64,000 nucleotides of DNA from IMG/VR virus record IMGVR_UViG_3300023440_000004, positions 1-64,000 of that record; one strand, 5' to 3'. The notes below the pieces were generated by a model. The model was given only the letters and a program-made list of their open reading frames with translations, was not told the DNA's origin and did no database searches. Positions 174 through 40,805 of the stretch are shown one piece after another (within the stretch, counting starts at the first letter, position 1; each line of letters begins with the position of its first letter). The translations under genes and the position numbers were made by a program. The DNA is from a virus.

Positions 174-494
174 TCAATCCTCCGGCCAGATCCACCGGCC
201 ATTCTTGTGGACCCACTTGTCCGTTCGGTACGGCTGACCTGGAGCGGGTTGGGAGGTGATCTGGAGCCGGTCTTCGGGAGAGATGGTGACGTGCGCTTGG
301 GGGAGACGGACCTCCAGCGTGCCGTCGTCTTCTTCGATCACCTCCACCGCGAGGTCGGGGGGTGGGGGTTCGTTCGGGTCAGGGGCCTCAGTATTCCGGA
401 TAGCATACACGTAGGTAGCCCGGTCACCGTTGTCGTAACGGATCTGGACTTTAACGGTGGACTGCCGGAGATCGTAGAGAATGGAATCGTTCAT
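174..494 (-). CDS. hypothetical protein (106 aa)
   Basis: Internal ATG (492-494) of track ORF 174..593, preceded by AGGAGG with 7-nt spacing. Starts MNDSILYDLRQ. The stop of the upstream gene lies just before the RBS. Confidence 0.65.
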   Translation of the reverse strand: MNDSILYDLRQSTVKVQIRYDNGDRATYVYAIRNTEAPDPNEPPPPDLAVEVIEEDDGTLEVRLPQAHVTISPEDRLQITSQPAPGQPYRTDKWVHKNGRWIWPED

Positions 495-504
495 TGGGTA
501 CCTC

Positions 505-1089
505 CTAAGGAGTTGGGTTGTGAAATTCCGCCCAGGTATCGAACTCTTCTGGAGACAATGGGCCGATACGACCGTCCCAGGTAAATACTTCAACTATCCC
601 TGTGTCTTTACGCCGTCCGGTTTCTGTGACTACGTATCCGCCAGGGCGGAGACGGGCAACGATGTGGGCGGTCTGAACGCATTTCCCACCTGACCGCTTG
701 AGGAGTAAGCGGTCACCGTTCACGACATCAATCCGTGAGTACGACCCACGGAACCCTCCTTGGCTGGTGATGAATACGATTTTCTCATCCTCTTCTGGGG
801 TGGCGGGGACGAGGAGATCGGTACCTTTTTGGGTACGTATGACCCGACACGGGGTCAGAGAGGCGGCGGATGCATGGTATTGCCGATAATTCTGATAGAA
901 CAGGTGCATCTTCCTCGGGTCGGTCGGCTCCCACCCATCCCATTCCAGCTTCAGGGATGGGTGGAATGGAAAGAACGCTGTATGACGGAAACCCTCCCCA
1001 CGGAAAGCGGGGAACGGGTCTGTGGATAAGTGCCACGGGGTAGGGAAATAAGAGTTGGTTTTTGACTTGGATAGTAAGAATTTAAGCAT
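505..1089 (-). CDS. hypothetical protein (194 aa)
   Basis: Track ORF 505..1116. I prefer the ATG at 1087-1089 (MLKFLLSK), which has GGAG 8 nt upstream. GTG at 1116 is an alternative start. No motif recognised. Confidence 0.6.
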   Translation of the reverse strand: MLKFLLSKSKTNSYFPTPWHLSTDPFPAFRGEGFRHTAFFPFHPSLKLEWDGWEPTDPRKMHLFYQNYRQYHASAASLTPCRVIRTQKGTDLLVPATPEEDEKIVFITSQGGFRGSYSRIDVVNGDRLLLKRSGGKCVQTAHIVARLRPGGYVVTETGRRKDTGIVEVFTWDGRIGPLSPEEFDTWAEFHNPTP

Positions 1090-1151
1090 GAGTGTCACTC
1101 CAATTCCGAATTTCACTCAAAGGGGCTGGACGGTGTCGTGGTGACGACGGC

Positions 1152-1295
1152 TCACCACCACTCATCATCCCCCAGCAACCCCGCCCAGGCGTCCTCGATA
1201 GCCGGGTCGCTGGACGGGTAGAGCTCCCAGATACGAGAGGCGCCTTGAGACGATCGACTGCCTCCGGCGTCAAGGGGCGGCAAAAAGCAGGCCAT
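1152..1295 (-). CDS. small hypothetical protein (47 aa, below the ORF-track cutoff)
   Basis: ATG at 1293-1295 with AGGAGG 7 nt upstream. Hand translation gives MACFLPPLDAGGSRSSQGASRIWELYPSSDPAIEDAWAGLLGDDEWW*. Third codon positions are mostly G/C. Confidence 0.45.
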   Translation of the reverse strand: MACFLPPLDAGGSRSSQGASRIWELYPSSDPAIEDAWAGLLGDDEWW

Positions 1296-1359
1296 AAGAC
1301 ACCTCCTCAGTCAATTATAACAAAGGTATTGTAGCAGTACCAACGGACAGGTTGGAAAA

Positions 1360-1927
1360 GTTACAAAGGGTCCGCGCGGTTACACGGGGTTACATTATTA
1401 TTATTGACGGCGGGGCCACAAGAGACGCCAAGGGTTACAAAGGTTACAAAAATCTCTATATTCCAACACCAGTTTTCTATATTAGAATTTTCTAATATGA
1501 GAATGATTCTCATTTGCATTTGCAGCTCCAGAGCCCGTCAATCATATCGATACTCAGAGCGTTACTCAGAGCGGTCGAGGGGGTTGACTTGTTGGCGGGG
1601 TATGGATATGATTACATCGGGGAGGTATGTATGTACGTACATACCTATATATATTATATACGCGATTATTTCCTGTGAGTGAATAATTTTATACGCCCCT
1701 ATATGAGATTATATGAAAGCCGGATTTTTCTGTAACTTTTGTAACCTTGTTCAAAATCAACAAGTTACAGAAAAAACTTTGTAACCGACTTTGTAACCTT
1801 CCTTGGTTTTGTAACCCCCTCAACCAAAACCTCTTTAAAATCAACAAGTTACTCTCTGAGCGACTTTTTGTAGCCCAATTTGGATAACTTATTGATTTTA
1901 AAGGGATCTTGTCGATTCGGGTTACGG
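1360..1927. other. iteron-flanked AT-rich element (candidate replication origin or control region)
   Basis: GGTTACA motif in forward orientation at 1360, 1379, 1389, 1434, 1443. Its complement (CTT)TGTAAC(C) occurs at 1731, 1740, 1780, 1792, 1810. Between them is an AT-rich core with the perfect palindrome GTATGTACGTACATAC (1629-1644) and GAGAATGATTCTC (1499-1511). A 20-bp inverted repeat lies at 1833-1852 / 1884-1903. Confidence 0.4.
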
Positions 1928-1961
1928 ACCTGCCAAAAACAATCAGAAACAATAAGGCCCG

Positions 1962-3080
1962 ATTGTTCACTGGCAGTTAACAATTACAATCCTTTTGCTA
2001 CCGAAATCCCGGCAATCGTTGCCGAACATGCAACAATCATGCCTAGAATTTGGGGCACTTTGCGGCAATGGTTGCCGGCCAGCGCCCTCTCTCCTCGCGT
2101 CGGGTGTCGATCGGGGGCGAACCTGCGGTTAAAGGCCATCTCACACCCCGTCGGTGCTCCTTTCAGGGCGGATTCCGCCTAAGCGCCCCTCTCGCCGCGT
2201 CTGAGCTTGGTAACGGCCCTGGGACGGCTCTGGGCCTGCTACCGTCATCAGCGCCCCTCTCGCCGCGTCTGAGCCGGAATCAGGGGCATAACTGGGGATA
2301 AAGGCCCTCTCACTTAGCGTCGATACCAAAATCTGGGCCGATAGACCCCGACTGTTCACCAATAGTGGACAATCGGGGTAAATACCGGGAAAGACTCGTG
2401 CAGTTGCGCCGTCAGATCCAGAATCAAGGTGCCGGTTCGGCCGGAAATAGCCGCGATTATTCGCCGTCGTCTGACAATCAGGGCCTTGGACGACCTGAAA
2501 TAGCCCTATCGCACGTCCAACCGGTGACAATCGGGTCAAAAAAGCCTCGATTGTTCGCTATCGGTTAACAATCAGGACTCCATGCTTGCTGGCGGTTGGC
2601 AATCTGGGCCAGAATCAGGGGCAATCCTGTGACAAAAGGCCAATCTTGGCGCGCCAGAGCCTGGGTCTGGGCGCTAAAAACCCCGTTTGTTTCCTAATGA
2701 TTGCCAATCCGGGCATATATGTGCCCGTCAGAACCCGGAGTAAGGTGACAATCCTGGGGGATTTGGCCAGATTGTTCGCTATCGGTTAACAATCAGGACT
2801 CCATGCTGGTCCAAAAGGCTTCGATTGGGCCGTGGCGGGCGGCAACCGGGGCCAGGACCAGGGGCAAACTTGGCCATTCCAACGTTTGGTGACAACCGGG
2901 CGCCTCTTGCCGGCGTCAGGTTCTCAAGACCCCGTTAACAATCGGCCGAAAATAGACCGATTGTTTGCTATCGGTTAACAATAAGAACCTCGGGTTCGTT
3001 GGCAGCCAGATGGCACTCCAGTCAGCGTCGATTGACAATTTGCCTGAGGCCCTAGGTATTGTTCATAGGTAGTGAACAAT
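1962..3080. repeat. array of six 23-bp palindromic sites ATTGTTC-N9-GTTAACAAT within about 200-bp degenerate tandem units
   Basis: Sites at 1962-1984, 2351-2373, 2550-2572, 2771-2793, 2960-2982, 3058-3080. A 38-bp segment GATTGTTCGCTATCGGTTAACAATCAGGACTCCATGCT is identical at 2549-2586 and 2770-2807. Many extra (G/T)ACAATC half-sites are present. Confidence 0.75.
2081..2323 (+). repeat. five phased direct repeats (about 24 bp, consensus GCCCTCTC-N5/6-GCGTC)
   Basis: Copies start at 2081, 2132, 2182, 2250, 2301, giving spacings of 51, 50, 68, 51 bp. Copies 3 and 4 (2182-2206 and 2250-2274) are identical: AGCGCCCCTCTCGCCGCGTCTGAGC. Confidence 0.7.
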
Positions 3081-3188
3081 AGCCGCCAGAACCTCGGGGC
3101 AGACATGTGGCATCCTTGTCCTCAAGGACAGAGGGTATTAGTGAGTGAGTTGGTAGGTGCCTATCAACTTACTTAAAAGGAGAACACC

Positions 3189-4412: not shown

Positions 4413-4682
4413 TTTTACAACCCCACCCACAACCACAACCACAACCACAACCACAACCTCACCCACAACCTCACCCACAACCTCACCCACAACCTCACTC
4501 TCAACCCTCACTCTCAACCTCACCCACAACCTCACTCTCAACCCTCACTCTCAACCTCACCCACAAAATTAGTGTGGTTTTTACCCACAACCCCACCCAC
4601 AACCCCACCCACAACCACAACCCCACCCATAACCACAACCCCACCCATAACCACAACCCCACCCACACCCACACCCACAATC
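4413..4682 (+). repeat. G-free C/A-rich microsatellite-like tract (top strand)
   Basis: No G from 4413 to 4571 (159 nt) and from 4578 to 4682 (105 nt). Built of CACAAC, CTCACCCACAAC, CTCACTCTCAACC and CCCCACCCA(C/T)AACCACAA units. The complement has GGG/GGGG runs spaced 1-4 nt apart. An ORF from ATG 4410 to 4754 is also open through it. Confidence 0.85.
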
Positions 4683-29767: not shown

Positions 29768-30940
29768 ATGGCTATCGATAACCGTGAACGGGCCAGACGA
29801 AACCGGCGTCGCGGTATGCAGGACGTTGCATCGGCTTTACCGGAGCTACAGACGGGCCGAAATCGGTTCCGTGGCACACAACGTCCAGGATCTTCGAACT
29901 CCATGAGCTTCTTCTCCGACCTGCTCGCCACCGGCGAGGCGGCCCCGGAACCGAAGCAGCCGCAGGCCCCAGAACCGAAACCTAAGACGCTGACGGGACC
30001 GACCAACCCCCCGTCGCCTGGCGGGGTGCTTGGGCTCCGTGAGCTGATGGCCGCGATGGGGAAGGCGCCGGACCTGTCCGGCTATCGACAGGTGCGGATG
30101 TTGCAGGACATGGCCGCTACCGATATCGAAGCGCCCAACATGCGACGTGTGGCCCGACAGGCCAAGGACTATTTGAACCGTCTCGGCATTACTGGACCGT
30201 CGGACCTGGGCGGGCCGTCCAGCCGGTTCCAGAAGCTGGCGTATGCCAAACTGTTGTCACAGACCGCAGCCAATATCGCCAACCGTCAGTTGGGCACCAC
30301 CAAGACGCAGGCCGACGTTCTGCGGCAGTTGATCGGGACGTCCGGTAGCGTACTTGGCACTGGTCTAAGCGCCCAAGCCGCATACGCCAACGCCCGCAAC
30401 GCGGCGCTGCGTGGGCTAGCGGCGGCGCTGGCCAAGACGAATACGAAAACGAAGACGAGTAAATCATCGACGAGGGACCCAAACAAAATCGACTACAAGA
30501 AGTGGTTGAGCGTTCTGCAAGGGCGGTTGGGTGCGGACCCCGTTGCCAAGGTGGCGGCGAACACGGCCCTGGACGCTTACGCGCAGACCGGGCGTGAACC
30601 ACCACCAGAGCTACTGGCGCTCGCGAACCGGGAGTTTCTGCAAAAAGTGAAAGATGCCGCCGACAATGCCACGTTTTCCATCTTCCGTGCGGTACCGTGG
30701 TCCGACACGGCGATGCTCCGCAAAGCCAATCGCGGCCTGGAAGCGTCACAGAACCCGCTCATGTCCGCCGTCGCGTCCGGCCAGTGGGCCTTCGACCCCT
30801 CGCAGCACGCCTTGGTCCCTGTCGGGCCTCGGTTCGGGGTGGAGCAATCGGATAGAAAACCGATAAGTCTGGATTTGTCCGATCCGGTGCAGAAGCTGAT
30901 CGCCAACTTGTTTCGGTTGAGAGTCAATGGCCAACAATAA
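29768..30940 (+). CDS. hypothetical protein (390 aa), possible internal virion protein
   Basis: ATG 29768 within track ORF 29756..30940. Basic N-terminus, Pro/Gln-rich linker, Ala-rich body. Overlaps the start of the giant gene by 14 nt. Confidence 0.75.
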   Translation: MAIDNRERARRNRRRGMQDVASALPELQTGRNRFRGTQRPGSSNSMSFFSDLLATGEAAPEPKQPQAPEPKPKTLTGPTNPPSPGGVLGLRELMAAMGKAPDLSGYRQVRMLQDMAATDIEAPNMRRVARQAKDYLNRLGITGPSDLGGPSSRFQKLAYAKLLSQTAANIANRQLGTTKTQADVLRQLIGTSGSVLGTGLSAQAAYANARNAALRGLAAALAKTNTKTKTSKSSTRDPNKIDYKKWLSVLQGRLGADPVAKVAANTALDAYAQTGREPPPELLALANREFLQKVKDAADNATFSIFRAVPWSDTAMLRKANRGLEASQNPLMSAVASGQWAFDPSQHALVPVGPRFGVEQSDRKPISLDLSDPVQKLIANLFRLRVNGQQ

Positions 30941-33900
30941 CCAGGATCGTAAGCGCCCTTTCGGGGTCAGGGACATCCTTCAGGCGAACCTGGCCCGAGA
31001 TATGATGAACTACGCTGACCCGGCCCGGCGGCGGGCTCTGAACCAGGAGCTTGCCGGGGATTCCGATTTTGCGCTCGGGGTGCGGGCCGGACTGGGTCGT
31101 ACCATCGCCGGGCTCCAGGCGCTGACAGGATTTACCGGCAGCGCGCAGGACACCCTGAGCACGCTCGAAACGCTGCCCACTCCACGGGTTACGGACTACC
31201 GTAAGATCAAGTCCCTGAGCGACGCGATCGACTATATCCAAGGGCTCGCCGGGTCATCCGCCCCGCAATCGCTAGCCACCTTGGGGGCGTTGGTTGCCAA
31301 CCCGGCGTTGGGACTCGGCGTTAGCGCGGCGATGTTTGGCGGCGAGAACGTCCTCGAACAGATGCAGCGTGGCGTCGCGCCAGAAGACCTCGACCGTGCC
31401 AGGGCGCTGGGCACCGGGGCGATCCAGGCGATCCCGGATGTCATCGGTGCTGGCGTCATCGCCAAGAGCTTGCGAACGATCGGTAGGGCGGCCCGTACCG
31501 GCGGGGTAGCCAAGACTATCGCTAAAGAAGCGGCCAAGGGTGCCGTCGGCGAGGGCCTTCCGGAGCTGTTCCAGGAAGAACTAACGATGCGCCAGGCTAG
31601 CGGACTGCCCGGCGCCCGTGAGCTAACCCCAGAAGAAGTCGCCCGACGGCGATTGGACGCGCTTATCGGCGGCGCTGCGCTTGGTACGGCGATGGGTGGC
31701 GCCGCCGGCGTCGGGCACGCCGCCGCGAACGCCCTTTCCGCCCGTGCTGTGCCGGAACAACCCATGTCGGCTGGCGCTGGCCCAGAAGGTGGCGTAGGCG
31801 GCCAGTCCGCTACCGAGACGGTCGTACCGCCAGAGCCCCCGCTCGGTGCCCAGGGGCCGGCAGCAGCCCCGACGCCGGATGTGCAGGTCCGTCCGATGGC
31901 CGAGGGACAGGCTCCGAAGGTCATGGGTATGACGTACCCCATGCCAAAGGACCTGAAGGTGGGTAAGCGAGAGGACTCGACGACGTTCGACGAGATCTTA
32001 GCTGGACGCCGCACGGCGACTACAAGGGCTACCCTTCCCAAAGGAGTGGAACCCGGACAGACCGTCGTGTTTACGTCAGGCGATGGTCGTAAGTCGGGAA
32101 CGTACGTCGTCCAGGATATCATCCCGTCTCCTCTGCGGCCCATGTTTCACAAGCCGCTCAAGGAGTGGACCGGCGAGGAGCGCAAACGGGCGGCGGAGTG
32201 GGCACGTCGTGAGCAATGGAATCCGTTTGTCATCAAAAAGAAAGCCGAGGCGGGTGACAAGGCGGCCCAAAAGCTTTGGGATCAGGTTGCCGGCCCCAGA
32301 GCCAAGCAGATTATTTTCGCCCCCATCGAAGCCACTCAGCCGGCCACTCAGCCGGCCGCTCAGCAACCTGCGGTAAAGTTCCGCTGGAAACAGCACGAAA
32401 CCCGCACGGTTCCCAGCGAGTTCATCTCGGCACCTTTGAGGAAGCGAGTCGCCCCTACTGGAGATAGCGCTCACGCCCTGTTCCTTGGAGCTGAGACGGG
32501 AGCGGTCACGGCCGCCGCTTCGAAGGTTAAACCGGGCGATACGCTGTACGAACGCACGTTACCGGACGGGCGGGTCGAAAGACTTGTCGTCGAGGACAAG
32601 GCCAAGAAGACCGCCTGGTTGACCGAACAGATGCTCAACGCCCGTACACCCAAGGAGCAGCGGGCGGCCGTCGTTGAGTTCTTGCGGACCGACAAGGGCG
32701 CCAAGGTGGCGAATCGATTGGGCTTGAATCCTAAGTTCGTCGCCAAAGTGCGGGCCGGAGACCGAACGGCGGTCGATCTAGCGGCCCGGATGTTCAACCG
32801 GCACACGGCCCTTTACAAGGTACGCCGTGAGATTGCCAGGCAGACCCAGCCTCAGACCCAGGCTCATCCTCAGACCCAGGCTCAGCCTCAGACCCAGGCT
32901 CAGCCTCAGACCCAGGCTCAGCCTCAGACCCAGGCTCAGCCTCAGACCCAGGCTCAGCCTCAGACCCAGGCTCAGCCTCAGACCCAGGCTCAGCCTCAGA
33001 CCCAGACAACCCAAGGCGTCGCACGTATCGTGGCGGCGGCCAAGCCTCCGTCACGATACGTTCAGAAGGAGCTGACCAAGGCGCGCGTCGCCACCAAGAT
33101 TCTCGCCCCTAGGATCGATCGAGAAGGGGCCGACCAGTCCTTCGCCGTTCGTCTCGCTAAGGCGGCCCCTGACGAGGCTCGGGTCGTTCCGGGATCGAAC
33201 GCCGATAATGTGGCGAAGGACGACGTGGTGTACATCTCCAATCCGGGGGCGTCTCGGTTCAGCGACAAGGCAAAGGCGCGGGAGTACGTCCAGAAGTACG
33301 TCGTGCCGACGGTCAAGCGTATCTTCGCCAAGGGCGCTTCGATCGTCATGGACTCTCCGGAGCACGCCAACCGCACACACAACCGGGAGACGGAAGGCAT
33401 GCTGTCGAACATTCTGGAGAACCCGGACGAAGCTATGCGGGTGTTCGGCGGCGAGGTGGTCCGTAAAGACCTTGGCAATGGGGCCGTCCAGTATTCCCTG
33501 CGCCCCCGTAGGCAGGCGCCAAAACCACCACAGCCCAAGCCACAGCCCAAGCCACAGCCCAAGCCACCAGCCAAGCCGCGGCCGCGAGCGCGTCGGCGGG
33601 TGACGAGCGCTGAAGCCGAAGCGTCCGGCGTTACCGTCGAGCGCATCGCTTCGGACGAGCCTTCGGCGCAGACGGAGCCGGAGCCCGCCAACAACCTGGT
33701 CGAAACGCTGTCGTCACGGGCTACCGAGTACTTGCGCGGTATCTCTAAAGCGGCGGTCGATCGTATCATCAACAGCGTTGTGTCCGTCGAACCGGACACC
33801 AAGCTGGAGTCGCTGATACGGCAAAAAACATTACCGATTTCGCGCGAGGTGGCGACGGCTCGCCTTCGTGCGTTAGCACAGCACCTTGCGGAAGCGGAGC

Positions 33901-36900
33901 TCGCCCCGGCCTTGAAACGGGTGGATAAGATCCTCAAGCGTCTTGGGGATGATGGGATCGAAAACCTGTTGAATCGAGTGCCCGATGTTCCCAAAACCCC
34001 AGCGGCTACGGAAGGCCCGTCGCTCGAAGACCTGGCCGGAGAACTCGGTGTATCGCAGAAGGCCCGCAACGTTCTGGACGCGCTGATCCATCAGTTGTCC
34101 TTCGACGTCGAACTATCCGACACCGCCGAATGGGACAAGGCCGTAAGGACCGTGGCCCAGATGGTCGAGTCCGCCAAGCGAGACACTCCGGAAGCGCCTT
34201 ACGTGCTCGGGGTTCTCACGGCGCTCGGGCGTAGCTCTAACGAGCAAAAGGTCAAGTTCCTGTCCGATGTCGTCACCAACGGTATGCGGACGGAAACGGC
34301 CGACCACAAGCAGGCTAGGTTGGCCGCTGCCCGTGTAGCGCGCACGTTAAGGGAGTTGGCCACCGATCCCAAGTTGCTGCGGGCGGCGATGCGTATTCGG
34401 ACGTCCGACCTGACGTTGAACGAGTCGCTGCTGGATTTGCTGCTGAAGTTCTACGACCCGAATACGGAACCGGACGAACTGCCGGTCGACGCCCGCGCCA
34501 GGGCGATTCGGGCCACGGCGGAGATCGTTGGCGGCCGTCGGAGTGGTAAGGGCTCGCTCGATTTGAACAGCAGTCTGCGCGATCGGCTGGAAAGCCTGGC
34601 GTCCAATCCGCGATCGGATATCGGACGGAAGGCCGCACAAGTACTCCGCGTCGTCCGCTCCATGGCCAACCAGACTTTGAGTCGGGAACTGCACCCACAG
34701 GTCGATCCCTTCGAGGAATCGCCGGCGGCCACGCGCCCCATGGAGTCCGACGAAATCGGTACTGGCGAACTGAAACGCTCGGACGGGCCGGAAGGTGCCA
34801 CCGTCCAGGTTCGCAAGATGTCCCGTGACGTACCGGACCCGGAGGCCGCACCATTGTTGACCCGGCTGGCCGAAGCCTTCCGATCTAGAAAGCCGAGCGA
34901 GGTGCTCCGGGTCGCCAGCAACGATGGCTTCGTCCGGCTGCTTCACGAGGCCATGCTCTCGACGGAAACCATCCTGGTACCCGATCCTGCCGGCACGAAG
35001 AAGGAGGGCGGTGTCGAGTTCACCCCCGTGCTTCGAGCGCCTATTCTCCAGCGCGTGTATCGGGGCAAGAACACCCAAGAGGCCGCCGCTACCCGTAAGC
35101 TGGTACGTGCGCTGCTTGCCAGGCATGGCGCACTGGTACCTGAAAACACCAAGTACGTCCCGTTCGGGGCGATCAAGGTGCCCGGTATCGGTATCGTCAA
35201 GCCGTGGAAACTCCATAACATGGCGAAGTTGGTGGGTGAGTTCACATCCACGGTAGACGACGATGCCGAATTGCGAGCGCTCCAGAGTCTCATGGTGCTG
35301 GACCGTGTGCTGGCATTCGCGTCCGAGCCCGTCACCATCGACACGATCGCCGAGTCCGCTCCGGAAACGGTGTTGGCGGACCAGAATTCTTTCGACACCT
35401 TGCGGGCCAAGACGCTCGGAGAGCTGTACCACGGCATCGGATCGGCCTTGCATTTGCGGGCCAGGGCAGCGCAATGGCGGCGATTCAAGTCGGACAAGAT
35501 CACGCTGTCGCGGTTGGATAAGGAAGTGTTGAAGCATAGCGGGTACACGCCAAGCGGTGAGGGTACCGCCACGACCCGCGAAGGTAAGGAAGTCAAGATC
35601 ACCCAGGCCCTGATGACCAAGGTTTATCAGCGGGCCTATCACGATGCCACCGCATCGTACAAGGACCGGAAAGGTCGCCCGTTCCGAGGCTCGCTGGCCA
35701 GCACGATGGCGGAGGCCATGGACAACTACGCTCGGGGGCTCTATCGAAATCAGATAGAGCTAATGAAAGCTCAGGCTGAGAAAGGCAATCTTCGAGCCAA
35801 AGCTATTCTGGACGAGTGGCGCGCTTGGTACCGTGGTGGCCGTGGCGATCATCCCGTGTTCGCTGCTCTGGCACGGGCCGGCGTAGACATGTCCCCGAGC
35901 CTCAAGACGTCTGACATCGTGGAAGCTGAAAAGCGCCTGTTCGAATTGAAGCAGGCCGGCGATTTGCCCCCCGGTGTGTGGGAGTCCTATCGCACCGCCT
36001 TGAAAGACTGGTCCGAGCAACTGGATCCGATCGAGCGGTCGATGGATTACAAGGGCAGCGACCGTCTGAAGCGGTATCTCGGATACCGTCGGGCAGCCAA
36101 GTATTGGCGGGAGAAGGACCTGGAGACTTTCGTCAGGAACGCCGAGACGATGATCGCCCTGGACGACCCGTTGCGCGGCGATATGCCCGGATCAGCCGAC
36201 CAGCTCCGCCAGGCGATCGGGTTCGGGTACGAAGACTCGGTGGTGTCCGAGAAAGACCCGCTGTATATCGATAGGACTCGGGAGCAGGGGATCGTCACCT
36301 ACGTCCGTGGCGAGGAGTTTTACGACGCCACCGCACGATCCTACGTCGAATCCGTCGCCAAAGAGACGATAGCCCGGTCCAAGCTGGTATATCGGGCCAA
36401 GCAACGGCTTAAAGCCATCCCGACGTACAAGGAGATCGACGAGCAGCTTAGCGCTGCCAAAGACGAGCTTTCCAAGTACGAATCTGTCAGGGACGCGATC
36501 AAGCGGGACCTTTCGAAGCTGAAATCCAAGGTCGGCCCCGAGGTCCGGCGGCTTCGAGACGAGTTGGGCACCGAATTGGAGCGGGTGCTTACTGCTATCG
36601 ACGCCATGCGGGATCGCGTGGCTGAACTGGAACGTACGCGCCGACAACGGGCGTTTTGGGAATCGCTATCCAAAGGCCGCAAGGCACATCCGGCGCTGCC
36701 GTCGAGGTCCCAGGTCGCCATCGCCAAGCGTATCCTCGAACAGGGGCGGGATATGAGCCTCAAAGACTTGGGCTTGCTGGCCAAGGAAATGGGCGTCAAG
36801 GCCATCACGCCAGACCCGGAAATGAGAATCATTCTCATTTCCACGGGCGACGCTGCTACGACGGCCGCTCGGGAAGCCCGCTTGGTGAAGCTTGGGTTCT

Positions 36901-39900
36901 CGGAGGTCATCCCGATTTCCCAGAACGATCAGGAGTTCTCCAACAAATTCCTCTCGGCCGTGCGTACGGAGAAGCCTGTCATCGTCGTCGACTTCGACAA
37001 AACGATGAAGCGTGAAGAACTCGCCGCCATCATCCGGGAGCAGCGACCAATCCGAGCGAAACTTGCGAAGATGGACCGGGCCGCCCTGCGAGCGGCGAGA
37101 AAACTAGCTGCGAGCCAGTTGGCGATGTCGACACTGGACAAGCTGGTCGGCAATAAGCCGATCGGCGTCGCTATTCTCGACGATTTGGTCAGCGGATGGC
37201 GAGACGGGCGTGTCGATGCCGAGGAGGTGGCCTATGCCGTTATCGCAGATGATACTAAGGCGGCCGCCAAGCTCCGGGCGCGCTGGGGCAAAGCGCTGCG
37301 TGGCAGTCAGGCCGGCGTCAGGCTCGCCCGCATCTTCGACGTTGCCGACCGAATCAGACAGGTTCGGGCGCAGGTGGCTGAAGACGGCGGTTCGATCGAG
37401 CAGATCCGCGCGGCGGTCGAACGGGCGGCCAGCGTCGAAATTCGGTTTGCTTCCCAGGAAGAAGCGGAGGTCGCCAGGTCCGACGTGGCCGGTATCGTCC
37501 AGGCGTTCATTACCCGCGTTTTTTCGGACGCCTGGTTGAAATCCATCAACGTCGAATTCGTTTGGCCGGACGTCACCAAGGTTGGTGACGAATGGACGTT
37601 CACGGATAGCGAACAGTCTCGCGTTCTGTTCGAGTCCACGTTGGGGTCCGGCAGCAACTTTCTGGCGTTCTCCGTCAACCAGGACGGTGGTGTCCGAATC
37701 CACCTGTCGGCGAGATTCGTCAATAAGGTACTGGCGAACGGGAAAAGGCTCACCGCCTCCACTGCATATGCGCTTGTGCACGAGTTGGCCCATGCGTATG
37801 TCGATCGGATGGCAGACGCGAACGAGCCAGTGCGCTGGTGGCTGGAGGAGTTGAGTAAAGGGACGTTCGACTGGATGCGCGGTGGCGGGTTGGTCGGTAC
37901 TAGCGCTTGGGAGTCCCGGCTGGCCGCCCGGAAGAAACCCGGACGGAAGAAGGTGAACCATTACCTGGCGTTCGACGAGATGGCCGCCGATGCCATCGCG
38001 GCTTACGTGTTCGGCGCGGATGCCGAGGCGATCCCGCAGTGGGTCCGTGGTATCGACAACCTTTTCCGCGAGGACGCCTTCGAGCTCCTCCATACACTGA
38101 CGCAGCGGCAGGAGGCCGATGTCGCCGACGCGGCTACGGAAGCAACCATGGAAGCGAGCGAGGATACGCAGGACGCTGGCGTCGATGTCGGCCCCATGCC
38201 GTCCGGTGACATGTCCTTCGCGGATTGGGTCGCGGTGACCCGTGCTGGACAGTGGTATACCACCAAGTTCGTCGTCGGCTTGGCCACCCACCTGACCCGC
38301 GTGGTCGACAAGGATACCGCCAAGCTGCTGATGAACAACGCCACGCAGCCTAGGGTACTGTTCCAGCTACGCAAGTTCGTACAGGAAACCTATGCCGAAG
38401 CGCCGGACGTTCGAGACGCCCTACTGGAAAAGCTGAACGACAGTCCCGAGACGGCTGCCGCGCTGTGGGTACAGGCGCAGTTGCTCGGCGCCGGGGTCAC
38501 GGCGGTGTCTCCGAAGGCGTCGGTTCTCTATACCGGCTTCCAGAGGATCGTCGAGTCGCTGGGACGAATCCCTTCGGACAAGGCTGGCGATATGGCCGTG
38601 GAACTCTTGGCCGACCAGCTGACCCGCACGGATATCGGCACGTCGCACTTCTCACCCATCCGCTTGGATACCAAGCTTCGGGATCGGGTCCTTCAGCGCA
38701 TCGCCGGACGGGTCGAGTCGCTGATCGGCCCCATGGCTAAGAAGGCTAGGCTCCATGCCTGGTTCTTTACCGTCGCTGAGCGCTTGCACGGGTACAACAA
38801 CCCGCACATCAACGCGTTGGCTAGGCTGTTCACGACCGACAACAAGACGGGGCGAATCGGGGTGTTCTCCGAAGTCTCCCGTTTGCGTGGGCAGTACTTG
38901 ACCGAATACGACAGGATCGTCCGTGGGCTTAGTGCCGACCAGAAGCGCCGGATCTCCGAGGTTCTGTTGCGTTCGCAGCTATATGGCGACGATATCCATC
39001 AGGCCGGGCTTAGCCAGAAGGAGCTCGCTGCGGCGATCCGTCTGCGGCAGTTCTCCAAGACGGTGTACGACAACGTGGCCGAGTCTGGCGTGAACGTCGG
39101 TGATCGCCCGGACAATTACTTCCCCCTGATGTTCGACCTCGAATGGTTGATGGCTCACCGCAGCGAGCTGCGGGATATCCTGCTGGCTCATGCTCGGAAA
39201 GACGTCGAGGCGATCCTGAAAGAAACCAATAAAGCCAGAGCCCGCGCGGGTCGGGACCCGGTCAAGTCCGTCGAGGAAATGGCCGACACTATCGTCAGCG
39301 GGTTGCTGGCGGCGCATGGTCATGCCGACGACGCCAGCTTCGATATGCTGCCGGACGCCTATTCGCCACGCTTCATGTTCGGGTCGCGTCGGCTCATCAA
39401 CAAGCTATTGCTTTCGAAACCGGAGGTCGCTCGATTCGTCGAGACCGGCCTGTCCCGAGACTTGGACGCCATCATGGTCGCGTTTTCGTCTCAGGCCGGG
39501 CGACGGGAAGGCTTCGCCCGGATGCTCGGCCCCCGTGCCGAAAAGGTGCAGGAGCTGCTCACCAAGGCCCTTGAGCTGGAACCCGACCTTCCGGTAGACG
39601 AAATCATGCGGCTGTTGGACAGCCTATACGGTATCGGTGGGGCGCGTACCAACGAGGCGCTGCATCGTCTCCTCGGCAAGGAAGCTCCCGCCGGCGAGAC
39701 GATCAATCCGAAGCTCAGCTTCGCTACCAACCTGGCGAACGTCTATATCTACACGACCACGCTGGCGCTGGCCGCGCTGACGTCTTTTTCCGACGTCAGC
39801 GGTGTGATGGCTAGAATGAATGGAGACATGGATATCGCCTTCCGGGCACTGATGGACGGTATTCGTGGGGCGTTCGGCCGAGAATCCGGGCAACGCGCCA

Positions 39901-40805
39901 AGGACTTCGCCGAGACACTGGGTATCGTACAGTCGTCGACGCTGATTGAATTGCTCAATCGTTTCGATGCCGATACGCCTCAGCAACTCCCGAACCGTTT
40001 GGCGGCATTGTGGTTCCGGCTGACCTTCATGACCAAATGGGACCAAATCTCCCGCATCATGGCGGCATCGGCCGCTGAGCAATTCTTGATGCAAATACAC
40101 AACGGCAAAATTGCGGACGAGATGGCGTCCAGGTATTTGCAGGAGCTCGGCCTGACCCGCGACGACCTGGCTGCCGTCGCATCGGCTAACGGTAAGAAGA
40201 TCGAGCTTCTCACCCTGGACGAGATCGCCCGGCTTCGGGATACCGATCCGGCTCGGGTCGAGTTGGACCAGCGGATCAAGCAGGCTCTGGTCGAGGTGGC
40301 CGACAGTATGGTCGTGCGGCCCAACCCGGCTAACCGTCCCAGTTGGGCGAACGACGAACACTTCCGGCTGTTCTTCGCCCTCAAGAGCTTCGCCTACGCT
40401 TTCTTCCACCAAGTCGTGGCTCGGGCGTGGTACGAAGCGAAAGAGGGCAACTCGGTGGCACTGTTCACGCTGGTCGCCGTATCCGTTCCGATGACGATCA
40501 TGATCACGGCGATTCAGGACCTATTGAAAGGTTACGACGACACTGGGTGGCGGTTCGCCAAGTACGGGGTGTTCGGGTACACCTTGGACGCCTTCGGTAA
40601 AGCGGGTATATTAGGTCCGGCCGCGTTCCTCAACGACCTTGGCTCGGGGTGGGAATATGGCCTGTCGTCCGTGCTCGGTCCGTGGGTCAATACGGTCACG
40701 AACATCTACGAGGCCATGTTTGCGGGCGATCCTGAAGATAGGCTATCGGCGCAGCTTAGCCTGCTTCCGGGGGCGACGTTGATCCGCCCATGGGTTCTGT
40801 ATTGA
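30927..40805 (+). CDS. giant multidomain (polyvalent-type) virion or ejection protein, 3292 aa
   Basis: Single uninterrupted ORF. Gly/Ala-rich hydrophobic N-terminal segments. ASCH-like stretch TTFDEILAGRRTATTR...GQTVVF. QPQTQA and PKPQ tandem repeats. Zincin motif VHELAHAY (HELAH at 37779-37793). Predicted TM segments lie in the last 350 aa or so. Confidence 0.8.
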   Translation: MANNNQDRKRPFGVRDILQANLARDMMNYADPARRRALNQELAGDSDFALGVRAGLGRTIAGLQALTGFTGSAQDTLSTLETLPTPRVTDYRKIKSLSDAIDYIQGLAGSSAPQSLATLGALVANPALGLGVSAAMFGGENVLEQMQRGVAPEDLDRARALGTGAIQAIPDVIGAGVIAKSLRTIGRAARTGGVAKTIAKEAAKGAVGEGLPELFQEELTMRQASGLPGARELTPEEVARRRLDALIGGAALGTAMGGAAGVGHAAANALSARAVPEQPMSAGAGPEGGVGGQSATETVVPPEPPLGAQGPAAAPTPDVQVRPMAEGQAPKVMGMTYPMPKDLKVGKREDSTTFDEILAGRRTATTRATLPKGVEPGQTVVFTSGDGRKSGTYVVQDIIPSPLRPMFHKPLKEWTGEERKRAAEWARREQWNPFVIKKKAEAGDKAAQKLWDQVAGPRAKQIIFAPIEATQPATQPAAQQPAVKFRWKQHETRTVPSEFISAPLRKRVAPTGDSAHALFLGAETGAVTAAASKVKPGDTLYERTLPDGRVERLVVEDKAKKTAWLTEQMLNARTPKEQRAAVVEFLRTDKGAKVANRLGLNPKFVAKVRAGDRTAVDLAARMFNRHTALYKVRREIARQTQPQTQAHPQTQAQPQTQAQPQTQAQPQTQAQPQTQAQPQTQAQPQTQAQPQTQTTQGVARIVAAAKPPSRYVQKELTKARVATKILAPRIDREGADQSFAVRLAKAAPDEARVVPGSNADNVAKDDVVYISNPGASRFSDKAKAREYVQKYVVPTVKRIFAKGASIVMDSPEHANRTHNRETEGMLSNILENPDEAMRVFGGEVVRKDLGNGAVQYSLRPRRQAPKPPQPKPQPKPQPKPPAKPRPRARRRVTSAEAEASGVTVERIASDEPSAQTEPEPANNLVETLSSRATEYLRGISKAAVDRIINSVVSVEPDTKLESLIRQKTLPISREVATARLRALAQHLAEAELAPALKRVDKILKRLGDDGIENLLNRVPDVPKTPAATEGPSLEDLAGELGVSQKARNVLDALIHQLSFDVELSDTAEWDKAVRTVAQMVESAKRDTPEAPYVLGVLTALGRSSNEQKVKFLSDVVTNGMRTETADHKQARLAAARVARTLRELATDPKLLRAAMRIRTSDLTLNESLLDLLLKFYDPNTEPDELPVDARARAIRATAEIVGGRRSGKGSLDLNSSLRDRLESLASNPRSDIGRKAAQVLRVVRSMANQTLSRELHPQVDPFEESPAATRPMESDEIGTGELKRSDGPEGATVQVRKMSRDVPDPEAAPLLTRLAEAFRSRKPSEVLRVASNDGFVRLLHEAMLSTETILVPDPAGTKKEGGVEFTPVLRAPILQRVYRGKNTQEAAATRKLVRALLARHGALVPENTKYVPFGAIKVPGIGIVKPWKLHNMAKLVGEFTSTVDDDAELRALQSLMVLDRVLAFASEPVTIDTIAESAPETVLADQNSFDTLRAKTLGELYHGIGSALHLRARAAQWRRFKSDKITLSRLDKEVLKHSGYTPSGEGTATTREGKEVKITQALMTKVYQRAYHDATASYKDRKGRPFRGSLASTMAEAMDNYARGLYRNQIELMKAQAEKGNLRAKAILDEWRAWYRGGRGDHPVFAALARAGVDMSPSLKTSDIVEAEKRLFELKQAGDLPPGVWESYRTALKDWSEQLDPIERSMDYKGSDRLKRYLGYRRAAKYWREKDLETFVRNAETMIALDDPLRGDMPGSADQLRQAIGFGYEDSVVSEKDPLYIDRTREQGIVTYVRGEEFYDATARSYVESVAKETIARSKLVYRAKQRLKAIPTYKEIDEQLSAAKDELSKYESVRDAIKRDLSKLKSKVGPEVRRLRDELGTELERVLTAIDAMRDRVAELERTRRQRAFWESLSKGRKAHPALPSRSQVAIAKRILEQGRDMSLKDLGLLAKEMGVKAITPDPEMRIILISTGDAATTAAREARLVKLGFSEVIPISQNDQEFSNKFLSAVRTEKPVIVVDFDKTMKREELAAIIREQRPIRAKLAKMDRAALRAARKLAASQLAMSTLDKLVGNKPIGVAILDDLVSGWRDGRVDAEEVAYAVIADDTKAAAKLRARWGKALRGSQAGVRLARIFDVADRIRQVRAQVAEDGGSIEQIRAAVERAASVEIRFASQEEAEVARSDVAGIVQAFITRVFSDAWLKSINVEFVWPDVTKVGDEWTFTDSEQSRVLFESTLGSGSNFLAFSVNQDGGVRIHLSARFVNKVLANGKRLTASTAYALVHELAHAYVDRMADANEPVRWWLEELSKGTFDWMRGGGLVGTSAWESRLAARKKPGRKKVNHYLAFDEMAADAIAAYVFGADAEAIPQWVRGIDNLFREDAFELLHTLTQRQEADVADAATEATMEASEDTQDAGVDVGPMPSGDMSFADWVAVTRAGQWYTTKFVVGLATHLTRVVDKDTAKLLMNNATQPRVLFQLRKFVQETYAEAPDVRDALLEKLNDSPETAAALWVQAQLLGAGVTAVSPKASVLYTGFQRIVESLGRIPSDKAGDMAVELLADQLTRTDIGTSHFSPIRLDTKLRDRVLQRIAGRVESLIGPMAKKARLHAWFFTVAERLHGYNNPHINALARLFTTDNKTGRIGVFSEVSRLRGQYLTEYDRIVRGLSADQKRRISEVLLRSQLYGDDIHQAGLSQKELAAAIRLRQFSKTVYDNVAESGVNVGDRPDNYFPLMFDLEWLMAHRSELRDILLAHARKDVEAILKETNKARARAGRDPVKSVEEMADTIVSGLLAAHGHADDASFDMLPDAYSPRFMFGSRRLINKLLLSKPEVARFVETGLSRDLDAIMVAFSSQAGRREGFARMLGPRAEKVQELLTKALELEPDLPVDEIMRLLDSLYGIGGARTNEALHRLLGKEAPAGETINPKLSFATNLANVYIYTTTLALAALTSFSDVSGVMARMNGDMDIAFRALMDGIRGAFGRESGQRAKDFAETLGIVQSSTLIELLNRFDADTPQQLPNRLAALWFRLTFMTKWDQISRIMAASAAEQFLMQIHNGKIADEMASRYLQELGLTRDDLAAVASANGKKIELLTLDEIARLRDTDPARVELDQRIKQALVEVADSMVVRPNPANRPSWANDEHFRLFFALKSFAYAFFHQVVARAWYEAKEGNSVALFTLVAVSVPMTIMITAIQDLLKGYDDTGWRFAKYGVFGYTLDAFGKAGILGPAAFLNDLGSGWEYGLSSVLGPWVNTVTNIYEAMFAGDPEDRLSAQLSLLPGATLIRPWVLY
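32841..33008 (+). repeat. 18-bp tandem repeat (CAGACCCAGGCTCAGCCT) inside the giant gene
   Basis: Seven perfect copies from 32871 to 32996, plus degenerate flanking copies. It encodes (QPQTQA)n. Confidence 0.9.
33528..33575 (+). repeat. 12-bp tandem repeat (CCACAGCCCAAG), 3 perfect copies plus 1 variant
   Basis: Encodes PQPKPQPKPQPKPPAKP inside the giant gene. Confidence 0.85.

Follow-up and report, generated by a model that had tools for sequence, protein, structure and literature searches.

The window analysed here is a 64,000-nt stretch of viral DNA (IMG/VR record IMGVR_UViG_3300023440_000004). Near its left end lies a region without recognisable genes that carries two inverted clusters of the heptamer GGTTACA around an AT-rich core, followed on the right by a second repeat array and, further downstream, by the gene of a D5-like primase-helicase (Table 1). 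Open reading frames of up to 132 aa occur in the region, with codon scores near zero or negative; none of them matched Pfam or PHROG, and Rfam and tRNA searches of the region gave no match. These searches confirm that the region is gene-free, as the initial annotation had described it, and argue against its caveat that the region might simply be coding. Its placement between divergent operons was also borne out, as the region is the divergence point of two gene blocks. A blastn search against 50,697 phage records returned no match, and the lineage has no close cultured relative. Sequencing runs in which the phage is present include SRR9849954.

Repeat clusters, core and neighbouring elements

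GGTTACA occurs in eight exact copies in the window, every one of them within positions 1378-1816; by our own arithmetic, the probability that all eight would fall inside 439 bp of 64,000 is about 6e-15. The copies lie first on the + and then on the - strand with mirrored spacing (inside outwards, 9, 45, 10 and 19 on the left and 9, 40, 12 and 18 on the right), so the inverted iteron clusters are real. The five facing copies per side that had been reported comprise four exact copies on each side, whereas the fifth is a one-mismatch variant in both cases, namely the outermost copy on the left (AGTTACA, 1359-1365) and the innermost on the right (TGTAACT, 1731-1737). With these variants counted there are 5 + 5 copies. 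The coordinates first assigned to the iterons are starts of the 6-mer GTTACA rather than of the heptamer. GTTACA is present 11 times in 1359-1816, eight of them within exact GGTTACA, and includes one copy of opposite orientation (+ strand) at 1763, inside the right cluster. The 5-mer GTTAC reaches 13 copies per 500 bp vs 0.62 expected (Poisson 1.7e-13). When the left and right arms were aligned, conservation was limited to the iterons; the arms are therefore not a recent duplication. The left inner iteron pair, GGTTACAAAGGTTACAAAAA, is 90% complementary to 1727-1746, and a perfect 14-nt inverted repeat in the right cluster (1725-1738/1762-1775) holds one iteron in each arm.

Table 1. Coordinates of the features of the candidate origin region and of the associated elements
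Feature	Position	Strand	Description
Likely leftward early promoter	1314..1343	-	TTGGTA-18-TATAAT with TG extension; consensus match only
Left iteron cluster	1359..1448	+	AGTTACA at 1359 and four GGTTACA, all facing the core
Exact GGTTACA	1378, 1388, 1433, 1442	+	motif search of the 64-kb window
AT-rich block 1	1449..1530	no strand	29% GC
Normal-GC island in core	1531..1620	no strand	52% GC
Sigma-70-like site	1584-1612	+	TTGACT-17-TATGAT; promoter scan; inside the normal-GC island
AT-rich block 2, candidate DNA unwinding element	1621..1730	no strand	33% GC
Right iteron cluster	1731..1816	-	TGTAACT at 1731 and TGTAACC at 1740, 1780, 1792 and 1810, facing the core
Exact GGTTACA	1740, 1780, 1792, 1810	-	motif search of the 64-kb window
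IHF consensus WATCAANNNNTTR	1755-1767, 1839-1851, 1885-1897	+, +, -	consensus match; copies of the 20-bp element
Second repeat array	1939..3080	+	six composite units GTGACAATC-N17-GATTGTTC-N7-GTTAACAATC
D5-like primase-helicase, candidate initiator, 832 aa	5462..7960	+	SF3 helicase, DUF5906

The gap between the clusters (1449-1730) measures 282 bp and has 37.9% GC, against 58.2% for the window. This agrees with the AT-rich separation of about 280 bp described in the initial annotation, but the gap is not uniform, since an island of normal GC content divides it into two AT-rich blocks. Nearest-neighbour energies place the least stable 100-, 200- and 300-bp duplexes of the 64 kb within 1601-1900 (z 4.6-5.0), with the 100-bp minimum at 1645-1744 and the 200-bp minimum at 1601-1800; the next least stable duplex window is 1433-1532. 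AT-rich block 1 carries a 16-nt tandem repeat (1473-1504) and the odd palindrome GAGAATGATTCTC (1499-1511). The island holds two copies of TACTCAGAGCGT (1551-1573), an inverted repeat (1540-1553/1600-1613) and a sigma-70-like site, which could serve transcriptional activation of an origin. In AT-rich block 2 are found TATATATATTATATA and the perfect 16-bp palindrome GTATGTACGTACATAC (1629-1644), which has an alternating purine-pyrimidine sequence and lies between the inverted repeats. The palindromes pointed out earlier are thus all present, but the 16-bp one is unexceptional by itself because the window has three perfect palindromes of this length, and it stands about 47 bp away from the midpoint between the clusters.

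The 20-bp element of the initial annotation was recovered at 1833-1852 and, inverted and with one mismatch, at 1884-1903, with its 16-bp core at 1753-1768. Its copies are also the only three matches to the IHF consensus in the whole window, where 0.86 would be expected, and these IHF-like sites are assigned to a third AT-rich block (1817-1915, 36% GC). Across 47 other heptamer clusters (see below) the IHF consensus is about 5x denser within +/-300 bp, a figure that AT-richness inflates. IHF may bind at the three sites. Perfect DnaA boxes occur at 1021 and 163, outside the cluster by 340 and 1200 bp, and a one-mismatch box at 1879. The likely leftward promoter lies just outside the left cluster and is followed by AGGAGG and then by the ATG, at 1295, of a 47-aa ORF. 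The promoter scan yielded 5 promoter-like sites vs 2.3 +/- 1.4 in shuffles, a count that is not significant alone. On both sides GTTACA forms the -35 hexamer of a sigma-70-like site, and the two sites face each other (GTTACA-17-TATATT at 1434-1462 on the + strand and GTTACA-17-TATAAT at 1736-1708 on the - strand).

The second repeat array lies 200-1300 bp from the origin-like region, spans 1.1 kb and contains ACAAT 15 times, on the + strand throughout. Its motif gave 9 matches vs 0.98 expected, all in 1665-3080. It was not found in 159 other loci, apart from L038, which is this same phage, and one isolated site in L140, and a viral scan with it recovered three isolated, unrelated palindromes only; the array is private to this phage. 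A further, C-rich tandem repeat array is present at 4417-4680. Both arrays are alternative or additional cis-elements and were counted against reading the heptamer region as the origin. N4-like hairpin promoters, used by a virion RNA polymerase, were considered on account of the palindromic ATTGTT-N11-AACAAT units and of a 3292-aa virion protein. This idea was dropped as unsupported: the protein has no PDB sequence match, and its only PHROG match is to 'virion structural protein'.

The GC-skew profile proposed as a check is compatible with an origin in this region but is not diagnostic, as the cumulative minimum falls at 6.25 kb rather than at the clusters, within a broad trough from 62 kb to 6 kb. 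The skew tracks gene orientation and is also confounded by the C-rich tandem repeat.

Recurrence of the clusters beside replication genes

A scan pattern consisting of three heptamers matched at least 120 contigs each in IMG/VR and in bacterial or archaeal genomes, with chance matches estimated at <1 and about 4, respectively. Among the matches listed, 47 viral and 23 genomic loci hold non-coding, mixed-orientation clusters of at least five copies. An 80-bp window within the lowest 2% GC of the locus was found within 300 bp of the cluster in 41 of the 47 viral cases. Primase/SF3-helicase families predominate among the nearest flanking ORFs. Those of the viral clusters (75 proteins) include DUF5906 (11), VapE (7), DUF927 (6), HTH_56 (5) and D5_N (4), together with DnaG, Toprim, PriCT and NrS-1 domains; those of the genomic clusters (42 proteins) include DUF927 (6), VapE (5), DUF5906 (5) and HTH_56 (4). 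By hand count, about 18/47 viral and about 12/23 genomic clusters are positioned directly 3' of a helicase gene, the families directly 5' of such clusters being the primases or SF3 helicases DUF5906/D5, VapE and DUF927/Cch. Large ORFs that abut a cluster by their 3' end, tested singly, were primases or helicases in 10/10 cases, and the first set of loci gave the same result.

The GC content of phages with the heptamer design spans 29-66%, and the design also occurs in genomes from almost every phylum. Conservation between loci is confined to the 7-mer, the flanks and cores being different. A shared C-terminal DNA-binding domain in the cluster-adjoining helicases was sought with BLAST and phmmer and rejected, as neither detected a common domain; the C-terminal 220 residues of these helicases fall into many unrelated sequence groups, so no recognition domain common to them is shown. 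A literature search for GGTTACA or TGTAACC iterons returned only primers and the unrelated RA3 RepA operator.

Four loci (L015, L029, L002 and L008) that have TerL, DNA polymerase A and MoxR in common with the window carry a GGTTACA cluster in the same place, between the MoxR/VWA block and TerS/TerL. The motif is thus conserved in relatives, contrary to the outcome that the initial annotation had named as refuting its proposal. Basic helical proteins of about 200 aa are encoded next to the cluster in these four loci and in L024. The possibility that they are a conserved origin-binding protein with a counterpart in the window was set aside, as they have neither a Pfam family nor detectable similarity to the 203-aa or 233-aa proteins of the window. 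Homologues of the 203-aa neighbour are located on contigs of 1.3-1.8 kb that do not include the region, and a metagenome scan with the 233-aa neighbour gave no matches.

Relatives of the primase-helicase itself were examined in metagenomic loci. In 52/60 of them the lowest-GC 300-bp window of the locus is situated no more than 1.2 kb upstream of the gene, and this AT-rich region next to the primase-helicase gene is in line with the origin reading. Four relatives that were read contain inverted clusters of lineage-specific short repeats (ATTCCA, TGTTCCA, GTTACAC and TTACACTT) around an AT core, and by a cruder count a locus-specific hexamer is found on both strands of the AT-rich upstream region in 26/60 relatives. 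GTTAC clusters as a feature common to the helicase relatives were rejected: few were present within +/-8 kb among the 46 relatives with loci of at least 9 kb, and a de novo search gave other lineage-specific repeats in some. L030, the one close relative (50% identity in the primase-helicase), was unusable for phylogenetic footprinting because its contig stops 231 nt upstream of the primase gene.

Salmonella phage Arash has at least 4 dispersed GGTTACA elements (at about 26.6, 66.4, 138.5 and 173.3 kb) that are 87-90% identical over 215-245 bp. They hold one orientation regardless of how the genes beside them are directed, and convergent genes flank one of the copies. Such multiple copies fit several origins and also a mobile or structural element.

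Candidate replication origin and alternative explanations

We propose that positions 1359-1816, with flanks to about 1915, are probably the replication origin of this phage, of the type served by a self-loading SF3 (D5-like) primase-helicase. The support is comparative, not experimental: this reading is favoured because heptamer clusters with an AT-rich core recur beside primase/SF3-helicase genes in numerous viral contigs and bacterial genomes that are unrelated to one another, a recurrence that also supports the initial annotation's suggestion that iterons flanking an unwinding element mark an origin.

The initiator would most likely be the 832-aa primase-helicase, which matches Pfam DUF5906 (4.6e-15) and, by sequence in the PDB, the NrS-1 helicase. 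A Foldseek search with its AlphaFold model matched the NrS-1 CTR, poxvirus D5/E5, SaPI5 PriRep (7OLA) and SaPI1 PriRep1-dsDNA (7PDS). The C-terminal domain (about residues 661-832) is modelled (pLDDT 77) with a beta-alpha-alpha-beta-beta order, a winged-helix-like topology; it has no Pfam match, and its best Foldseek hits (E about 1-6), mostly wHTH proteins, were not significant. GGTTACA might be read by this C-terminal domain. The primase-helicase would bind both opposed iteron clusters, with one hexamer assembled per side as a putative double hexamer, and would melt the AT-rich stretches (1449-1530, 1621-1730) that lie between the clusters and next to them. Bidirectional synthesis, presumed to begin at the region, would be started with the initiator's own primase. 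The three IHF-like sites of the right flank may bend the DNA, and promoter-like sites reading into the core may aid opening or priming by transcription.

A wider proposal is that the GGTTACA box is a single ancient and very widespread origin type. One heptamer, in inverted clusters about an AT core, would then be used by primase-helicases with four or more different architectures (D5_N/DUF5906, VapE, DUF927/Cch+HTH_56, and Toprim or DnaG fusions). Its carriers would be phages, prophages and islands from almost all bacterial phyla and from some archaea, and large phages, e.g. Salmonella phage Arash, would have several copies. We regard this as a tentative idea that is somewhat doubtful at present.

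Among the alternatives, a transcriptional control hub is the one with most in its favour, although we consider it unlikely. The heptamers would be operators that switch divergent early operons, the AT-rich core would be promoter DNA, and a phage protein such as the KilA-N protein, the 233-aa protein or some other small protein would act as the regulator. The divergence of two gene blocks at the region, the facing GTTACA -35 hexamers and the good leftward promoter all fit such a hub, as do the Sigma70_r4 and GcrA-like proteins that were each found beside 3/47 viral clusters. However, the count of promoter-like sites is not significantly above that in shuffles, and the iterons do not include the best leftward promoter. 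Clusters elsewhere usually adjoin a primase-helicase gene on its 3' side and are not placed between divergent genes, the copies in Arash keep their orientation whatever their neighbours, and neither KilA-N nor classic repressor families are enriched beside viral or genomic clusters. A regulatory role could also coexist with an origin, the site being between divergent operons.

It is improbable that the clusters are a selfish or mobile cassette, either a MITE-like element or a horizontally spread portable origin module, and not the resident origin. The breadth of GC contents and phyla in which the design occurs would be accounted for by such a cassette, as would its position beside helicases of unrelated families, the near-identical copies in Arash and a local GC content far under that of the genome. 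Against this, the 7-mer alone is conserved between loci, and the GC content of a cluster follows that of the genome carrying it rather than being fixed. In the window there is a single copy, syntenic with that of the relatives and with no adjacent transposase.

The initial annotation had also allowed for a packaging (pac/cos) or partition site, which would be bound by the small terminase subunit (TerS) or a ParB-like protein. This has less support than the origin and is very improbable. The cluster is a few kb upstream of TerS/TerL in the phage group of the window, and IHF-like sites occur in cos and partition sites too; still, TerS is the nearest ORF in 3/47 clusters, which is rare compared with primase-helicase adjacency, and the ORFs scanned include neither ParA nor ParB. 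No genome end is marked here; the 64,170-nt contig reads through, and where this phage's other contig is broken, at 2047, the position belongs to the second array and not to the iterons.

The region might also be a site of telomere resolution as in linear plasmid-prophages (N15 telRL type), with the alternating purine-pyrimidine palindrome between the inverted repeats as its centre. This was rejected with near certainty, as the palindrome has 16 bp where at least 22 bp would be expected, is one of three of its size and lies off the symmetry centre, no protelomerase family matched among the proteins scanned (part of the ORFs), and the heptamer clusters associate with primase-helicases.

Significance and comparison with known origins

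Very few phages have a mapped replication origin, and origins are hardly ever annotated in viral genomes from metagenomes. If the origin reading is true, an origin is placed and a likely initiator named for a lineage without close cultured relatives, and a design known from Staphylococcus aureus pathogenicity islands (SaPIs) reaches 64-kb virulent-type podophage-like genomes. GGTTACA clusters beside primase-helicase genes would then be a signature, with dozens of candidate origins among the matches listed, and could be tested in the cultured Salmonella phage Arash, which has the same heptamer, and Pseudomonas phage KPP25, which has a one-base variant. Possibly novel are the heptamer common to C-terminally unrelated helicases, the multiple copies in Arash and the private 1.1-kb second array. 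Should the wider proposal of a single origin type hold, there would be either an unrecognised heptamer-reading module in divergent C-terminal domains or a portable origin cassette, and origins would be predictable by sequence alone in many uncultured viruses.

By terminase and primase-helicase, the nearest cultured relatives are phages such as KPP25 (Kochitakasuvirus), with a genome of about 64 kb and the same replication genes (TerL 36% and primase-helicase 27% identical). In KPP25, GTTACG/CGTAAC repeats surround an AT core at 26.32-26.82 kb, in a region unannotated in the record, and are followed by tandem repeats of about 85 bp (read by eye) that are analogous to the second array of the window. 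The KPP25 iteron, GTTACG, is one base off, and the region is within a co-directional early gene block, about 12 kb from the primase-helicase gene.

Origins of the lambda and plasmid type (ori lambda, pSC101, R6K, P1 oriR) likewise have repeated initiator sites beside an AT-rich unwinding element, with IHF sites and DnaA boxes as common accessories. Their iterons are 17-22 bp long and mostly direct, and a dedicated Rep or O protein recruits the host helicase, whereas the window has 7-bp repeats in two inverted clusters and a phage-encoded SF3 helicase; no Rep/O family was found among the proteins scanned.

The SF3 helicases of SV40 and papillomaviruses (LTag, E1) bind inverted short repeats of the core origin through their origin-binding domain, and a double hexamer forms beside an AT tract and an easily melted palindrome. 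The likeness is architectural only: these viruses infect eukaryotes, their compact origins measure about 64 bp, and the origin-binding domain has another fold.

In satellite phage P4 the initiator is the D5-like alpha primase-helicase, whose C-terminal winged helix binds 8-bp iterons (TGTTCACC), and replication needs a second, distant iteron-bearing cis region (crr) besides ori. The second repeat array of the window recalls crr, although a crr-like action of the array would be speculative; iteron sequence, phage type and genome size are different.

The window shares its architecture with the pri-rep-ori module of SaPIs and related islands (PICI). SaPI origins contain 6-12 short iterons, with at least two opposed iterons per side of an AT-rich centre; a self-loading SF3 helicase, which is often joined to a primase by fusion or pairing, acts as initiator, and the C-terminal winged helix of Rep recognises the iterons (PMC9371898). 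In the window, the 5 + 5 opposed heptamers agree with this pattern in number and length (about 6-12 iterons of 5-8 bp) and in flanking an AT-rich centre that the computed duplex stability identifies as easily melted. In contrast to the islands, where the origin is directly 3' of the rep/helicase gene, the cluster in this phage is separated from the helicase gene, upstream of which it lies, by 3.6 kb that hold three genes and two repeat arrays, and its core is long and divided by the GC-normal island. SaPI iterons are described as Rep-specific, whereas GGTTACA is common to several helicase families, and SaPI Rep and the phage helicase are alike in fold without sequence homology. The phage nevertheless encodes an SF3 helicase as candidate initiator, as judged by DUF5906 and by the match of its model to the SaPI5 and SaPI1 PriRep structures, and in many other loci the GGTTACA clusters do lie directly 3' of the helicase gene, as in the islands.

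Architecture of the candidate origin region

The window represents nearly all of a 64,170-nt contig with a phage-like genome, which had no nucleotide matches among 50,697 phage records. The candidate origin is located inside a 1.9-kb stretch (1296-3188), where the minus- and plus-strand gene blocks diverge. The initial annotation described the region as gene-free, which is in line with codon scores near zero or negative for its ORFs; these had no Pfam or PHROG match, and neither an Rfam family nor a tRNA was detected in the candidate origin region.

All eight exact GGTTACA copies in the window fall within 1378-1816, four on the plus strand followed by four on the minus strand. The inverted clusters of five plus five copies noticed at first were recovered by counting the one-mismatch copies AGTTACA (1359) and TGTAACT (1731), while an extra copy at 1763 has the opposite orientation. 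GTTAC is present 13 times per 500 bp (0.62 expected). Counted outwards from the core, iteron spacing is 9, 45, 10 and 19 in the left arm and 9, 40, 12 and 18 in the right arm. Alignment of the arms showed conservation restricted to the heptamers, which argues that their mirror symmetry is kept by selection and does not stem from a recent duplication.

The reported AT-rich separation of about 280 bp was measured as 282 bp with 37.9% GC (58.2% overall), consisting of two AT-rich blocks (29% and 33% GC) with a 90-bp island of normal GC between them. Using windows of 100, 200 and 300 bp, the lowest duplex stability of the 64 kb was assigned to 1601-1900, with 1433-1532 in second place. The perfect palindrome at 1629-1644 is real but off-centre, and the window has two more perfect palindromes of 16 bp. 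The 20-bp element is also present, but the IHF consensus WATCAANNNNTTR describes it better: the element amounts to three matches, and the window has no others.

Positions of gene blocks, a plausible promoter and the repeated elements of Salmonella phage Arash
Feature	Position	Strand or orientation	Remark
Minus-strand gene block	1-1295 and about 49.8-64 kb	-	
DNA polymerase A, PD-(D/E)XK nuclease, SNF2 helicase, dCTP deaminase, MoxR-AAA/VWA proteins	within minus-strand block	-	
Plausible leftward promoter with extended -10 and strong ribosome-binding site	1343-1295		outside iterons
Plus-strand gene block	3189 to about 49.8 kb	+	
233-aa protein (function not assigned), KilA-N protein, 832-aa DUF5906 primase-helicase	within plus-strand block	+	
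TerS, TerL, structural genes, 3292-aa virion protein	within plus-strand block	+	
Arash element copies (OQ632216.1)	about 26.63-26.87, 66.38-66.59, 138.48-138.72 and 173.25-173.46 kb	one orientation	none annotated

To the right of the candidate origin, a second array (1939-3080) contains six composite units, GTGACAATC-N17-GATTGTTC-N7-GTTAACAATC, 98-390 bp apart, with 15 copies of ACAAT, all on the plus strand. ATTGTT-N11-AACAAT has nine matches (0.98 expected), all within 1665-3080, and a perfect TTGACA in the last unit (3032) precedes the first rightward gene by about 150 bp. None of the 159 other loci compared carries the motif of this array; candidate roles for the array are copy control, a P4 crr-like enhancer, tandem regulated promoters or a centromere. 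A 1,740-nt locus from Logan (SRR9849954) is 100% identical to window positions 308-2047, meaning that either the phage was present in a second sequencing run or SRR9849954 is the window's own source run. It ends within the second array, which indicates that short-read assemblies are interrupted by the repeats at this point.

In its GC-rich part (about 65-67%), the non-coding region holds a perfect 25-nt direct repeat, AGCGCCCCTCTCGCCGCGTCTGAGC (2182-2206 and 2250-2274), accompanied by other, degenerate repeats about 40 nt long (D3, D9). About 21 copies of the 12-nt tandem repeat ACAACCTCACCC (4417-4680), C-rich on the plus strand, are situated upstream of the KilA-N and primase-helicase genes, and the 171-aa ORF that overlaps them, whose codon score is negative, matched no family. 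Perfect DnaA boxes (TTATCCACA) occur only twice in the window, at 163-171 and 1021-1029 (minus strand), no more than 1.2 kb left of the iterons; allowing one mismatch, 18 boxes were counted window-wide against 7.5 expected, and none of 100 shuffles reached 18. The 3292-aa ORF (30927-40805), whose span includes an 18-nt tandem repeat (32847-33005), gave a 'virion structural protein' PHROG as its sole match, to the C-terminal 700 residues, and no match to PDB sequences. Giant virion proteins are also encoded in Pseudomonas phage KPP25 and Aeromonas phage phiA008.

Comparative evidence from relatives and other genomes

Comparison with other genomes supports the interpretation of the region as a replication origin, and on this basis we consider that it probably is one. 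The motif is conserved in relatives: four loci (L015, L029, L002 and L008) with TerL, DNA polymerase A and MoxR in common with the window have a GGTTACA cluster at the same position, the MoxR/VWA block being on one side and TerS/TerL on the other. Judged by TerL, the nearest cultured relatives are phiA008 (40% identity), KPP25 and Pseudomonas phage phiR18 (both 36%). An unannotated part of KPP25 (26.32-26.82 kb) has 9 GTTAC per 500 bp (p 1e-8). Between gp30 and gp31 of this phage (NC_024123.1, 26,320-26,890), an AT core separates GTTACG repeats from CGTAAC repeats that face them in an ori-like arrangement, and three tandem units of ~85 bp follow, each with GTTACGAAATTTTTTGA and CGTGACAA.

A profile scan of metagenomes with the primase-helicase returned 80 loci, often on contigs 60-68 kb long; 60 loci were usable. 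In 52 of these 60, the 300-bp window with the lowest GC of the entire locus was no more than 1.2 kb upstream of the start of the primase-helicase gene. The four relatives that were read have an AT core between inverted clusters of short, lineage-specific repeats (ATTCCA, TGTTCCA, GTTACAC and TTACACTT), and by a cruder criterion a locus-specific hexamer is found on both strands of the upstream region at 26/60 loci. An AT core and inverted repeats tied to the helicase gene, with a drifting repeat sequence, are what co-evolution of initiator and origin would produce. Between the candidate origin and the helicase gene, the window contains three genes and the 12-nt tandem repeat. L030, the closest relative (50% identity), also has a copy of that repeat, with no KilA-N gene between this copy and its primase gene; the L030 contig end (1-110) is inside the reverse-complement repeat, about 120 nt upstream of the primase gene.

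A first IMG/VR scan, an exact search for GGTTACAAAGGTTACAAA, returned 29 loci, many with TATATA-rich cores surrounded by 5-18 heptamers of both orientations (contigs with 33-54% GC), and the cluster adjoins a primase-helicase gene in several independent groups. A stricter three-heptamer pattern gave at least 120 loci each in IMG/VR and in the genome collection, the latter covering nearly all bacterial phyla and two archaea, with estimated chance matches of less than 1 and about 4, respectively. The matches listed form two classes, single-orientation arrays within ORFs and non-coding clusters of mixed orientation; the former are coding repeats unrelated to the latter. Such tandem arrays occur in large ORFs of L047, L079, L130, L149, L152 and other IMG/VR loci and of a Rhodobacterales MAG (L229), reach 52 copies per 600 bp, and would contaminate naive motif-based origin searches.

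Non-coding, mixed-orientation clusters with at least five copies were found at 47 viral and 23 genomic loci among the matches listed, and 41 of 47 have an 80-bp window within the lowest 2% of locus GC no more than 300 bp away. Across the listed clusters, conservation is limited to (G)GTTACA, and neighbour spacing peaks at 9 bp, the seed triple being fixed at 9-12 bp by the scan. Primase and SF3-helicase families predominate in the ORFs nearest to the listed clusters, namely DUF5906, VapE (counts not additive with DUF5906, as the same protein is frequently matched by both), DUF927/Cch with HTH_56, D5_N, Pox_D5, DnaG/Toprim, PriCT and NrS-1 HBD. These enzymes account for about 22 of 75 viral and at least 11 of 42 genomic flanking proteins among the matches listed. 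All ten large ORFs tested singly whose 3' end abuts a cluster were primases or helicases, and by hand count of the matches listed the gene 3' end leads into the cluster at about 18 viral and 12 genomic loci. No papers describing GGTTACA iterons were found in the literature searched, where absence is not proof of novelty.

Counter-evidence and alternative explanations

Several points count against an origin. In neither the window nor KPP25 does the helicase gene adjoin the cluster, no common C-terminal sequence accounts for unrelated helicases beside the same heptamer, and use of GTTAC is rare among relatives of the window's own helicase. The GC-skew profile proposed as a check reaches its minimum at 6.25 kb, in a broad trough; gene orientation and the C-rich repeat at 4417-4680, which causes a local dip, both confound it. 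The multiple dispersed GGTTACA elements of Arash are a further point; they could be several origins or a mobile element. At least four copies (87-90% identical, about 215-245 bp) were counted outside 90-130 kb, and BLAST gave five places in the record. Each has TGTAACC, an AT core and GGTTACAaagGTTACA, in that order. Their orientation is constant whatever the direction of neighbouring genes, and one copy lies between convergent genes, which argues against promoters.

A regulatory hub, which could coexist with an origin, is suggested by the location and by promoter matches that are non-significant, and we regard it as unlikely. Even less probable is a mobile or portable cassette: breadth of distribution and the Arash copies would fit it, whereas conservation confined to the heptamer, local GC that follows each genome and the syntenic position speak against it. 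There is little support for a packaging or partition site, which is very improbable, or for a telomere-resolution site, whose likelihood is negligible.

Candidate initiator and comparison with the SaPI origin

The core of the 832-aa protein is an SF3 helicase (DUF5906). In sequence the protein matches the NrS-1 helicase, and its model (pLDDT 63) matches NrS-1 CTR, poxvirus D5/E5, ASFV PrimPol, SaPI5 PriRep (7OLA) and SaPI1 PriRep1 with dsDNA (7PDS). Residues 661-832 were modelled (pLDDT 77, pTM 0.73) as a helical bundle followed by beta-alpha-alpha-beta-beta, in winged-helix order; Foldseek on this model gave nothing significant, the weak top matches being mostly wHTH proteins.

Among described systems, the SaPI origin comes closest, with 6-12 short iterons directly 3' of rep and an AT-rich centre flanked on each side by at least two iterons in opposite orientation (PMC9371898). 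Rep recognises the iterons through a winged helix of its C-terminal domain, and it loads and melts without ATP, probably as one hexamer per side (PMC9371898). By analogy, we propose that the primase-helicase of this phage would bind both GGTTACA clusters and load as a pair of opposed hexamers; it would then open the AT blocks and prime synthesis. IHF-like sites and promoter-like sites directed into the core may, we infer, assist. What is added by the window is a sequence signature, widely recurrent among the matches listed in the two scans, together with the questions it raises, in a system that is of a known type and not a new kind.
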